Part shown: in pieces, positions 19,408-22,703 of the stretch
Layout of the letters: each line of letters begins with the position of its first letter
How positions within the stretch are numbered: position 1 is the first letter of the stretch
NCBI GenBank assembly: GCA_048882505.1
Contig: JBHLRO010000015.1
Coordinates: 1-32,000, forward strand
Reading direction: 5' to 3'
Origin: Candidatus Thorarchaeota archaeon
GTDB lineage: Archaea > Asgardarchaeota > Heimdallarchaeia > Hodarchaeales > Hodarchaeaceae
Length of the DNA: 32,000 nt
Notes under the pieces: generated by a model
What the model was told of the DNA's origin: nothing
Database searches by the model: none
Seen by the model: the letters and a program-made list of their open reading frames with translations, nothing else
Translations under genes and position numbers: made by a program

Positions 19408-20646
19408 ATGAGTGAAACAGATATTGATACTAGTACAGTAAAATACCTCATCCACGAGAAATTTACCATCAATGGAGTTGCAGAAAAGAGTGATATCATT
19501 GGTGCTTTGTTCGGCCAAACAGAGGGTCTCATTGGGGAAGGTCTCGACCTCAGAGAACTACAAAAAACGGCGCGCATCGGACGGATTAGTGTTAAGCTTT
19601 CGTACCAGAAAAAACAACGCAAAACGACAGGAACGATTATCGTCCCATCCTCGTTGGATCGAGTAGAAACGGCCCTTCTCGCGGCGGCCCTTGAGACGGT
19701 GGATCGGGTTGGGCCATGTGTGGGGAAGATGGTCCTCCAGAAAATCGAAGACGTTCGTGAAAGTAAACGGCGACAGATTGTTTCCCGGGCTTCTCGCATT
19801 CTTAAGACGTGGGATCAAGAAGTTACCCCTGATTCGGTCTCCGTACTGGACGCCGTGTTAAAAGAGGCACGAGTTAGCATAATCCAAAAATACGGGAAGG
19901 AAGACCTTCCCGCGGGGCCTGGGATAGATGATAGCGACAATTTGATCCTTGTTGAAGGAAGAGCAGATGTAATGAATCTCCTGAAACATGGGTTTAGAAA
20001 TGTGCTAGCTGTTGAAGGAACAAATGTTCCAGCCGAGGTAGTGGAGTTGACCAGGAAGAAGGTTACCACCGCATTCCTTGATGGTGATCATGGGGGGGAT
20101 CTTATCCTCCGAGAGCTCATCCATCTTGCAGATCTTGATTTTGTTGCGAGAGCTCCCCCGAATCAAGAGGTAGAAGAGCTTAGTAGTAAGGAAATTCTCA
20201 AAGCTTTACGAGGAAAAATTCCGATAGAGCAGATATTGAAGGAGCTGAATATCACTCCTGAAGATCTCGAGGATACAGAGGAAATAGATCAGGGGGATAT
20301 TTCTGATACGGCCTCTAAGGATGTTTCCATCATTGTCCAAACGAAAGGAGACATATCGGGAAAGATACCTCAAGATTTAACAGCTTTTGTTGAGAATCTT
20401 TCTGAGCAAGAAGGGCTTTTATTAGGGCAAAACAAAGCCATTCTGAAGGAGAATATACCGATCAGTGAACTTCGCGATACCATTCTGGCGACTGATAACA
20501 TAGAAACTGTAATTTTTGATGGCATAGTCACTCAGAGGATTTTGGATGTTGCTAGCGAACGCGGGGTGAAAACAATTGTTGGTGCCAGAGAACACGAGGT
20601 TACAAAGAAACCAATGGACATTACCGTATATACTTTTGGCACCTAA
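19408..20646 (+). CDS. dnaG: Archaeal DnaG (TOPRIM; exosome-associated)
   Basis: VEKSDIIGALFGQTEGL, ELQKTARIGRI, LVEGRADV, AFLDGDHGGDLI. Confidence 0.96.
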   Translation: MSETDIDTSTVKYLIHEKFTINGVAEKSDIIGALFGQTEGLIGEGLDLRELQKTARIGRISVKLSYQKKQRKTTGTIIVPSSLDRVETALLAAALETVDRVGPCVGKMVLQKIEDVRESKRRQIVSRASRILKTWDQEVTPDSVSVLDAVLKEARVSIIQKYGKEDLPAGPGIDDSDNLILVEGRADVMNLLKHGFRNVLAVEGTNVPAEVVELTRKKVTTAFLDGDHGGDLILRELIHLADLDFVARAPPNQEVEELSSKEILKALRGKIPIEQILKELNITPEDLEDTEEIDQGDISDTASKDVSIIVQTKGDISGKIPQDLTAFVENLSEQEGLLLGQNKAILKENIPISELRDTILATDNIETVIFDGIVTQRILDVASERGVKTIVGAREHEVTKKPMDITVYTFGT

Positions 20647-20845
20647 TTAGGTTCAGTCGGAGGGAGTTTTCGGGCTTTCTTGAAAAGAACAGGAATGGAT
20701 CCAGTTCGAGAATCATTCCTTGATCCATTTAAAAGCCCTAAATCTTCAAGTTCAAAAGCGGTCAAGGTAGAGGGTGTTTAGTGACAACAGAGGAGGTCCA
20801 AGCTACTAACAAAGTTTTGCCATAAGTTATTGGGAACCCTCTAAG

Positions 20846-20906
20846 GTTTCTCAGACTGGGACGGCGTCGTCACGGACTTCGGTTAAATATTAATCATCAT
20901 CGAAAC
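20846..20906 (-). ncRNA. Box C/D methylation guide sRNA (61 nt), overlapping the 3' end of rnp2
   Basis: GUUUC-G-AUGAUGA-(11 nt)-CCGA-AGUCC-GUGACGA-(12 nt)-CUGA-GAAAC: canonical K-turn with a 5-bp terminal stem. Confidence 0.88.
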
Positions 20907-21288
20907 TTGATTTCCAATAATTATGAAAGATCTTGTTAAAAGCACTGGCACGGTGCAGGTGTCCGGTGCTCAACAGTTCCTCTTTAGCAGTTTTGAGAGT
21001 TCCACTCACATTTTCCGAATAAGCAAAAAAGGGATTTTGGTTCCATTTCTGAACAAAACACAATGCCCCTCTGACACGATGGATGTATTTATGGGCGACC
21101 CGGAAGATACCGCCCTGGGTTTTTGGGTCAAAGAATGCTAGAAAGAGACCTATGTCTGCCGCACCTACTGTCCCAACTAGACGTCTAATTTCAGAGGACA
21201 CAACATGCCACGCGTCCTTTTCTGTTAGTGAAGATTGACTAATCATCCGAATATTGATGTAGCGAACGCGTTCATCCATAGGAATCAC
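20890..21288 (-). CDS. rnp2: RNase P protein Pop5/Rpp14
   Basis: ERVRYI..., LVGTVGAA, GIFRVAH...VRGAL, VSGTLK; follows rpl15e-rnp3. Confidence 0.88.
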   Translation of the reverse strand: MIPMDERVRYINIRMISQSSLTEKDAWHVVSSEIRRLVGTVGAADIGLFLAFFDPKTQGGIFRVAHKYIHRVRGALCFVQKWNQNPFFAYSENVSGTLKTAKEELLSTGHLHRASAFNKIFHNYWKSSFDDD

Positions 21289-22031
21289 TCTTCTTCGAAT
21301 TTAGGTTGATTTGATGGATTAACTTTGAAAACTCCAGGGATAACATAATCTGGGGTAATTTTACGAAGGTTTTGAGTGAGAAGACTGTGAGGCGTCACGC
21401 TTAGAGCGTTTAGAGGAAGTTGGGTACTGTTCAATAGGATCTGCCCTAAGGATGCCAGTTCGCGTGGGGTTCGCAGGTGTTCAATATTGGCTGCACCAGA
21501 GGAGAAAATGTAGGAGACGTGTTTCCGGATTATCTCAGTAAAAGCATTTCTGATATTTCGGATAGCAGCGATGTGACTACGATAGGGAAGGGTATACAAA
21601 TCAGCCAAGGAAATTTCCAGACATTTATTATGGTTATTCATGAGTTTAGCTACCGATCGGGTGAGTAACTTGCCAATCTCAAAAGGACGGAACTTTAAAA
21701 TATCAATACGGTTATCTTGAGCTGCCCATGCGGTAATATCGGGAGTAGCACAAGTGATGGCGATTATAGGAAAGTGACGGCGTTTTTGTCGCAGAGTAGA
21801 TATTATTTTTGCTTTATCATTATCATTCAGCCCGATATCGATCCGTTGAAAAACTTTGGGGTATTTTAAGGTACTTGATTGCTTTAGGATATCCTTGGTG
21901 GCTTTTGTAGGATTACTAATCCATACCTGTGAAAACCCTAGGTATTTTGCAACCCTTAAGCATATCTCCAGTTCGTGCTCGGGAACCTCCGCGGAAAAAG
22001 AGTCGATAAACTTTCGAGGCAGGCCAAACAC
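21285..22031 (-). CDS. rnp3: RNase P protein Rpp30
   Basis: RIDIL, AKL...N.KCLEISL, FSSGA....LRTPREL; conserved gene order. Confidence 0.88.
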   Translation of the reverse strand: MFGLPRKFIDSFSAEVPEHELEICLRVAKYLGFSQVWISNPTKATKDILKQSSTLKYPKVFQRIDIGLNDNDKAKIISTLRQKRRHFPIIAITCATPDITAWAAQDNRIDILKFRPFEIGKLLTRSVAKLMNNHNKCLEISLADLYTLPYRSHIAAIRNIRNAFTEIIRKHVSYIFSSGAANIEHLRTPRELASLGQILLNSTQLPLNALSVTPHSLLTQNLRKITPDYVIPGVFKVNPSNQPKFEEE

Positions 22032-22139: not shown

Positions 22140-22703
22140 TCAACGATCATAAGCGGGTCGAAGATGCTCATAACCCTTTCCACGACCTCTAAGACCACGG
22201 CCTTTACGGCCCGCGGAAGTTTTTCCACGGAAAACGCGTCCCCGATGGCTTCGATCACAAATCCAATTGATTTTTGGATCGGATTTTATTTCAGGAGCAT
22301 GGGGGTCGACTAGGATTACTTCGAACCATCGAAATCTACCATCCTCTAGGACAGGATAGCTGTTAAGGATTTCTAGATTAGGAAATCGACGGGCTGTTCG
22401 CTCTTCTGCAATCCACTGACGGGATTTCTTTGGAGTTATTTTATTAATTCCCATTCGTCTGGAACGACGCCCACCCACGGGGCGGGATTTCCTACGGCCT
22501 CCTCTAGGAACACGAGTACGAGCAAGTATAAATCCCTTTTTTCGACGATATCCAAGTTTTCGTGCTCGATCTAATCTAGTAGGGAAGTCAATTCGAATAA
22601 CTGATGGTTGGCGCCGCCACTCAATCAATCGCGCAATACGTAGTTGCTTAAATTCAGAACTCCGTTCATTCCAGAACGCGGATATAAACTTGTAAGCATT
22701 CAT
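22140..22703 (-). CDS. rpl15e: Ribosomal protein eL15
   Basis: [57 protein letters not shown] at 22711-22718. Confidence 0.98.

Follow-up and report, generated by a model that had tools for sequence, protein, structure and literature searches.

The window analysed here is a 32-kb stretch of DNA (positions 1 to 32,000 of contig JBHLRO010000015.1, assembly GCA_048882505.1) from Candidatus Thorarchaeota archaeon (Hodarchaeales). Its minus strand carries rpl15e, rnp3 and rnp2 in that order, and rnp2 encodes the Pop5 protein subunit of RNase P (Table 1). Beyond the Pop5 domain, residues 106-132 form a tail with an FDDD end, and the open reading frame closes with TTC GAT GAT GAT TAA. A box C/D sRNA begins within the last Pop5 codons and continues past the stop codon.

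Table 1. Genes and sRNA parts at the rnp2 3' end, in window coordinates
Feature	Position	Strand	Remarks
rpl15e	22140..22703	minus	Pfam PF00827, 1.8e-73; upstream on the same strand
rnp3 (Rpp30)	21285..22031	minus	Pfam PF01876, 7.3e-19; 4-nt overlap with the Pop5 start
rnp2 (Pop5, RNase P protein subunit)	20890..21288	minus	Pfam PF01900 (Rpp14/Pop5), 4.6e-14, residues 9-105
Whole box C/D sRNA, 61 nt	20846..20906	minus	From sequence; unique strict motif; kept in 20 genus genomes
Terminal stem, 5' strand GUUUC	20902..20906	minus	Within Pop5 codons AGT TTC; pairs with 20846-20850
C box AUGAUGA	20894..20900	minus	Codes part of Asp-Asp-Asp; invariant in 20/20 orthologs
D' guide UUAAUAUUUAA, 11 nt	20883..20893	minus	Variable among orthologs
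Pop5 stop codon TAA	20890..20892	minus	Inside the D' guide; from the ORF list
D' box CCGA (CUGA variant)	20879..20882	minus	Aligned to the CUGA of most orthologs
C' box GUGACGA (RUGAUGA variant)	20867..20873	minus	Ortholog alignment columns 35-41
D guide CGCCGUCCCAGU, 12 nt	20855..20866	minus	Core CCGUCCCAG invariant in 20 orthologs
C within the D guide	20859	minus	Opposite the nucleotide predicted for methylation
D box CUGA	20851..20854	minus	Invariant among 20 orthologs
Terminal stem, 3' strand GAAAC	20846..20850	minus	Beyond the reading frame; covaries with 20902-20906

Read 5' to 3' on the minus strand, the element consists of GUUUC, G, AUGAUGA, UUAAUAUUUAA, CCGA, AGUCC, GUGACGA, CGCCGUCCCAGU, CUGA and GAAAC. 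The outer segments GUUUC and GAAAC form a 5-bp terminal helix that closes the C/D K-turn. The guide spacers are 11 nt (D') and 12 nt (D), the linker between the D' and C' boxes is 5 nt, and the internal boxes CCGA and GUGACGA each contain one change from the consensus, for a total length of 61 nt. The original prediction had claimed a box C/D architecture with a perfect C box supplied by the end of rnp2 and an overlap of 17 nt between sRNA and coding sequence; the sequence bears out the former, and the latter is correct since 20906-20890 is common to both. The layout of boxes and guides also stands, but the boundary between the D' box and its guide had been misplaced. The ortholog alignment sets the D' box at CCGA (20882-20879), and therefore the D' guide is 11 nt long.

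A strict motif (RUGAUGA, then 34-44 nt, then CUGA, flanked by 5 paired bases) occurs once in the window, compared to 0.003 times per shuffled window. At gathering thresholds, Rfam detects two tRNAs alone in the 32-kb window and assigns the element to no family. Below threshold, a 351-nt stretch gives 16 matches, of which 14 belong to box C/D families, and each of these 14 falls on the sRNA element; the best is Pyrococcus sR14 with 20.3 bits (threshold 38, E 0.002). The best matches of one ortholog (L011) are snoZ157 (24.5 against a threshold of 55) and SNORD31 (14.4 against 40), and the Rfam scan at the window's own sRNA locus returns no SNORD31 match. That the curated C/D families are not reached is to be expected, because their models encode the guides of particular families. 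The features of the box C/D class are nevertheless present: C and D boxes, terminal helix, internal boxes, spacers, size, guide pairing and partner proteins. In the genome to which the window belongs (the host), the gene for fibrillarin (1.3e-78) adjoins that for Nop5 (Nop, 1.8e-64) on contig C18, and there are two L7Ae-family genes. As judged from sequence, minus-strand 20906-20846 is confirmed as a complete, real archaeal box C/D sRNA.

Pop5 was found in 34 of 41 related genomes. In about 20 species (20 genomes) of the genus, the same RNA is found at the 3' end of Pop5, the identity of Pop5 itself being just 40-85%. Aligning Pop5 C-termini and the downstream DNA across relatives, a comparison suggested with the original prediction, shows that the boxes are conserved at the orthologous loci in these 20 genomes. 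The C box, D box and core of the D guide do not vary, while the D' guide and the C' box drift, the latter being degenerate across the genus (RUGNNGA). An exact copy of the 14-mer formed by guide and D box is found in 17 of 21 other genus genomes. The terminal stem is paired in 99% of cells of the 20-ortholog alignment, and four of its five pairs have changed on both sides; the compensated versions include UUUC/GAAA, CUUC/GAAG, CCUC/GAGG, UCUC/GAGA and ACAC/GUGU. None of 500 shuffles reaches this covariation, and slid controls are 23-69% paired.

The Pop5 stop codon moves relative to the RNA. It lies at six places counted from the C box (-14, +1, +8, +14, +20 and +23). Three genomes have it at -14, with the whole RNA downstream of it, and another three have it within the C box (A-UGA-UGA). 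Five genomes, the window's species among them, have it at +8, one has it at +14, six have it within the D' box (C-UGA) and one has it at +23. Since the stop codon takes six places, one of which is 14 nt upstream of the C box, the RNA and not the protein tail is the conserved unit. In those orthologs where the Pop5 frame runs on through the C box, it always reads GAU GAU GA-, which gives Asp-Asp-Asp/Glu; the G007 ortholog, for example, has the tail DDDIIPD*. A Phe/Leu codon lies in the 5' stem, and it varies in step with the base that it pairs with outside the Pop5 gene. This ortholog series fits the earlier suggestion that the acidic Pop5 tail is perhaps dictated by the RNA, and by this comparison the tail is whatever the RNA spells in frame.

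The same data bear on the reading that the element is a chance resemblance, or a product of constraint on the Pop5 tail, with no RNA gene behind it. This reading would account for the missing Rfam family at threshold. However, the strict motif is expected only 0.003 times per window, the compensatory changes join a coding position to a non-coding one, and the best-conserved part (D guide plus D box) always lies outside the reading frame, so that this explanation is hardly credible.

The alignment also contains a possible paired change in the internal boxes. In columns 27 and 39, the fifth position of the C' box is C (GUGACGA, AUGACGA) in six orthologs. The second position of the D' box is C (CCGA), clearly so in the two nearest genomes, the window's species and G016; the other four orthologs with this C' base also have a C in the D' box provided that the D' box is shifted one base earlier than in the alignment. 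In all orthologs with a D' box of CUGA, the fifth C' base is not C but U, A or G. These changes would fit a swap from U-U to C-C in the internal K-loop.

Conserved sequence continues downstream of the sRNA. Directly after the 3' stem is a motif that is conserved throughout the genus, AUUAAGGRUUCC in relatives and UUAGAGGGUUCCC in the window (20826-20840, minus strand), which may be a signal for processing or termination, and three relatives have a U-run within about 20 nt after the sRNA. A second conserved element is located about 30-90 nt downstream (L011:1970-2030 and, on the minus strand, L065:1410-1485, L020:1351-1426 and L014:1367-1442). Its stem is GAGUAG...CUACUC (in one genome GAGCAG...CUGCUC), ACAUUU comes next, and blocks of CACCUUU and CAACGGCAGCC are also conserved. 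It is H/ACA-like in look, but an Rfam search of this element in the relatives matches neither H/ACA nor any other family. The element is faint in the window (20760-20810, minus strand), and it seems to be degenerate there and in the closest relative.

The position of the sRNA suggests how it might be transcribed. No promoter of its own is evident, and the end of Pop5 contains the 5' stem, the C box and the D' guide; transcription as a message tail is therefore the most likely route. The alternative is that the sRNA is real and guides Gm2251 but is made from its own promoter inside the Pop5 frame and not released from the operon transcript. Own TATA-like motifs are known for about 20% of archaeal C/D sRNA genes (PMC7994747), and AT-rich runs are present upstream of the sRNA (TTTAAC at 20940-20935 and ATAATTAT at 20925-20918). 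These runs, however, do not lie at -26, where such a motif is usual, and they lack conservation in the orthologs, in which the upstream bases track Pop5 codons such as a conserved Trp codon. A scan of 20600-21000 for sigma-70 promoters and intrinsic terminators, with models that are not archaeal, found nothing. Given the lack of a conserved AT-rich box at a suitable distance, and since the upstream bases follow the Pop5 codons, transcription in the message tail is the likeliest route and a separate promoter is unlikely. The layout is also a familiar one: an upstream gene's stop codon lies within 25% of archaeal C/D sRNA genes, in half of these within the C box, and most such genes are without a promoter of their own (PMC7994747). 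Lui et al. (2018, PMC6009581) count 23 cases of a C box supplying the stop in Pyrobaculum.

The D guide is complementary to the 23S rRNA P-loop. Against ACUGGGGCGGU (helix 80 in the clade's native-type 23S) it forms 11 contiguous pairs with an energy of -20.9 kcal/mol; in the window's version of the duplex, nine of these are Watson-Crick and two are G-U pairs. The target string in the native-type 23S is ACUGGGGCGGUA, and the P-loop of the relative G004 reads GUACUGGGGCGGUAAG. This is the sole site with at least 11 of 12 matches in a composite of native 23S and 16S, and no predicted tRNA exceeds 9 of 12. In E. coli rrlH the target string spans A2247-U2257, which places G2251 opposite the fifth nucleotide counted from the D box. 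The proposed pairing of about 11 bp, with D+5 on G2251, thus holds on the native-type 23S of relatives, the P-loop of the host itself not being assembled. The D guide is predicted on this basis to direct 2'-O-methylation of the G2251-equivalent in the P-loop.

The native 23S of the host ends before the P-loop, and thus pairing in the host is expected from the relatives and from the invariance of the guide; its helix 80 would read ACUGGGGCGG. The string ACUGGGGCGGUA is carried by the native-type 23S of G004, which is 83.6% identical to the host gene on contig C38, and by nine metagenome contigs whose 23S, compared over 2.1 kb, has 78-84% identity to C38. Because these contigs were retrieved with a 23-mer spanning the target, they were in part bound to agree at that site; the variable region next to it differs among them, which shows that several species are represented. 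About one third of shuffled rRNAs also give an 11/12 match if the mismatch may fall anywhere. Therefore the weight lies on the contiguity of the pairing from the box, on the fact that the site is known, and on the invariance of the guide.

Two compensated forms of helix 80 occur in this Asgard class, ACUGGGGCGGU in family f1 and the sister family f3 and the eukaryote-like GCUGGGGCGGC in families f4, f5 and f7. Within the class, the guide-plus-D-box 14-mer CCGUCCCAGUCUGA is found exact only in f1 and f3, both of which have the ACU-form 23S (L053:1335-1345 vs L078-L110).

The target of the D guide might instead be some other RNA, whether tRNA, mRNA or a different rRNA site, or the guide might serve as a folding chaperone without methylation. 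Orphan guides are common in archaea, with 28% in Pyrobaculum (PMC7994747), and the host genome has sixteen 12/12 matches to the D guide. The sixteen matches are close to a rough chance estimate of about five, however, and no predicted tRNA or known rRNA contig contains any of them. The ten that were inspected are in ordinary-looking sequence, for example W-D-G codons, and the genome-wide matches were rejected as targets on these grounds. With the tRNAs at 9/12 or below and no other site at 11/12 in the composite 23S and 16S, action on another RNA is very improbable, and the P-loop is the preferred target.

The host bin has two very different 23S genes, which are about 65% identical to each other. 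One is on contig C38 (21 kb) and halts at model position 2078 at the contig end (compared span C38:1-2091). The other, on contig C57 (6.3 kb; L048:307-3242), is the only complete 23S in the assembly, and its helix 80 is GGUGGGGCGCCA. The D guide pairs poorly with the C57 P-loop (9/12), and no site with one mismatch or fewer is found for it in the full C57 23S. The contiguous 23S of G004 is about 65% identical to C57, far below its identity to C38, and it is the one genome among 22 of the genus in which a BLAST of 23S domain V finds a native-type P-loop. C38 is inferred to carry the native gene. C57 is probably a contaminant of the bin, derived from another archaeon, because its contig is only 6.3 kb long, its identity to C38 is about 65%, and the relatives (G004 and the nine metagenome contigs) follow the C38 type. 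G007 and G016, whose 23S segments are cut at the same model positions as C38, are counted with these relatives against C57 being native. The mismatch to C57 was therefore rejected as a refutation of the P-loop target. Checks of rRNA targets against C57 mislead, and C57 taken alone would wrongly have eliminated the P-loop.

Several other features of these rRNA contigs were observed. The stem of helix 80 in C57 has compensated changes (GGU...GCC). Two independent assemblies have the native 23S interrupted at model position 2078 (host C38:1; also G016:C9 and G007:C8), and the last 250 or so positions of 23S occur in the host as isolated copies without preceding rRNA (C52:7081-7391 and C45:1819-2129). 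On C31, 36 nt resemble the region that follows the P-loop; this match was rejected, as it sits in non-rRNA sequence. The host contig ends C11:63 and C15:94692 share ATAGGGACGGCG, which on C11 is beside a tRNA-Pro gene; by this sequence, C11 and C15 may abut or share a repeat.

The D' guide is a weaker case. In the window's species it is AU-only, and the earlier suspicion that it may be inactive is supported by a duplex of only -1.8 kcal/mol at the best collective site. It is therefore probably inactive or very weak in this species, judging from its pairing. That site, UUAGGUAGUUGU (E. coli 2235-2246), is the joint best of 17 orthologous D' guides, with z = 4.3 across about 4,300 rRNA positions. 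It lies directly upstream of the D target, and the fifth D' position would face G2239; the guide of G004 forms 8 contiguous pairs there (-9.7 kcal/mol). The D' guides are related by descent, so the collective fit amounts to one shared core (UACC), and G2239 as a D' target is suggestive only. Methanopyrus sR40 is listed with 23S G2508 (PMC4644070, supplementary file 1), which would be the G2239 position if the alignment is gapless between 2508 and 2520. Two other D' candidates were rejected: the 12/12 site at 651-662 of the C57 23S is on the probably foreign gene, and at the 11/12 site at 1142-1153 of the host native 23S, the rRNA of G016, the closest relative, is the same while its guide breaks the key fifth pair.

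Guides for the same P-loop nucleotide are known in other archaea. Methylation at alignment position G2520 (E. coli G2251) has been predicted in three archaea (Dennis et al. 2015, PMC4644070). An identical guide, AGCCGUCCCAGU followed by CUGA, occurs in Thermoproteus tenax sR107 and Pyrobaculum calidifontis sR36 (PMC4644070, supplementary file 1); their D guide, (A)GCCGUCCCAGU plus CUGA, is the same over 11 nt and contains the same G-U wobble. P. oguniense TE7 (CP003316.1) has a matching sRNA, whose C box likewise contains the stop codon of the gene before it. The Thermoproteales counterparts differ in having unrelated D' guides and other host genes, their upstream ORF tails being HAD-type hydrolase- or metallophosphatase-like by eye and not Pop5, and their hosts are hyperthermophilic Thermoproteota whereas the present one is a sediment Asgard archaeon. 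In a genome scan, the same guide plus D box turned up in further Thermoproteales, one Undinarchaeote and one Nitrososphaerales MAG, along with about 15 bacterial chance matches against a rough estimate of about ten. At these non-Asgard loci the well-defined upstream ORFs are other genes by eye, and the remaining loci are without a clear upstream gene. An ancient link to Pop5 was therefore rejected, on informal inspection by eye, since the sRNAs of Thermoproteales, Undinarchaeota and Nitrososphaerales have no Pop5-like upstream ORF. The Thermoproteales and Asgard guides may share descent or may have converged on a universal target.

The wider class of 3'-overlapping C/D sRNAs in archaea (Tripp et al. 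2017, as summarised in PMC7994747; PMC6009581) resembles the present case in its sense overlap, its stop codon inside the sRNA and its lack of an own promoter. In this class the overlapping guide is often an orphan, and members of one family differ in where the overlap falls, as here (PMC7994747, PMC6009581). The Asgard case differs in that the overlap with one gene, Pop5, is kept throughout the genus with the stop codon in six places.

Outside archaea, the claimed correspondence of the bacterial RlmB site Gm2251 with yeast Gm2619 (snR67) is stated in the literature, which adds human Gm4196 (U31) (PMC7600485). The RNAs snR67 and U31/SNORD31, RlmB and the mitochondrial MRM1/Pet56 all serve modification of this P-loop nucleotide, and the eukaryotic modification is guide-RNA-based as well (PMC7600485). 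RlmB and MRM1 are protein-only enzymes, however, and snR67 and U31 share no detectable membership of a sequence family with the Asgard sRNA.

A further example is found in a sister family. Genus g7 (G028, L055:1485-1555; G038, L056), from the same class of Asgard archaea, has a C/D sRNA with the same P-loop guide and the same target in its own 23S. It differs in that the guide is in the D' position and the gene is intergenic, about 6.5 kb from Pop5 on the other strand. Its terminal stem is GUGGC/GCCAC, and its D box is the variant AUGA, with another guide, CCCUACGACACA, in front of it.

L7Ae is a subunit of archaeal RNase P. The element could therefore be mainly a K-turn that recruits L7Ae to the 3' end of the RNase P protein message; there it would couple or regulate their expression instead of being released as a methylation guide. 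A C/D K-turn does lie within the Pop5 mRNA, and binding of archaeal L7Ae to mRNA K-turns is reported (PMC5539422, PMC6009581). A pure K-turn, however, has no need for an 11-nt guide that is invariant in 20 species and identical to published P-loop guides, and in three orthologs the whole RNA is downstream of the stop codon. It is thus quite improbable that this is the main role of the element, although a K-turn role and a guide role are compatible and not exclusive.

The guide RNA remains the preferred reading. Taken together, the best explanation, and a very probable one, is an archaeal C/D sRNA that guides methylation of P-loop G2251, is made as the tail of the rpl15e-rnp3-rnp2 message, is trimmed, and acts with a single guide. 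The sequence comparisons show the anatomy of the RNA, its conservation and covariation, its complementarity to the 23S of the clade and the presence of the partner proteins; its expression, co-transcription and processing, and the methylation of its target, are inferred. The sRNA would be transcribed as the tail of the rpl15e-rnp3-rnp2 message, and L7Ae, Nop5 and fibrillarin would assemble on it. The message would then be trimmed to the size of the sRNA, as the bound proteins protect it and the unprotected flanks are removed; trimming of a protein-bound transcript is the model for most archaeal C/D sRNAs (PMC7994747). The D guide would pair with the 23S P-loop (helix 80), and fibrillarin would 2'-O-methylate the G equivalent to E. 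coli G2251. Because the D' guide is decayed in the window's species, the RNA would act there as a single guide.

A broader proposal joins the D' observations and the K-turn to this mechanism. Most RNAs of the genus might be double guides that clamp a continuous 23 nt of helices 79-80 (E. coli 2235-2257), with D' directed to G2239 and D to G2251, both methylating the P-loop and chaperoning its folding. The window's species would be losing the D' half, which lies in or beside Pop5 codons, and the K-turn, kept in the Pop5 message throughout the genus, could tie the supply of RNase P protein to the availability of L7Ae. As a whole, this proposal is speculative and rather doubtful.

A resemblance to eukaryotic snoRNAs encoded in host genes had been put forward. 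The overlap with the stop codon is present, but the novelty was overstated and the layout is not special to this Asgard lineage. The target, an identical guide and a stop codon inside the sRNA have all been published for other archaea (PMC4644070, PMC6009581, PMC7994747), and therefore the snoRNA-like resemblance is not particular to Asgard archaea. With both the P-loop target and the overlapping layout already known, the find is solid but ordinary.

For the organism, the sRNA adds an unannotated methylation guide to the Hodarchaeales gene set, directed at a nucleotide that is universally modified and functionally central in the ribosome. Hodarchaeales are placed closest to eukaryotes in recent phylogenies. 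The P-loop Gm is predicted to be RNA-guided in Hodarchaeales, Thermoproteota and other archaea, as it is in yeast and human. The features of modest interest are the genus-wide overlap with Pop5, the series of stop-codon positions and a possible former two-guide clamp of helices 79-80. The genus series is a clean natural example of sequence common to an RNA gene and a protein tail.
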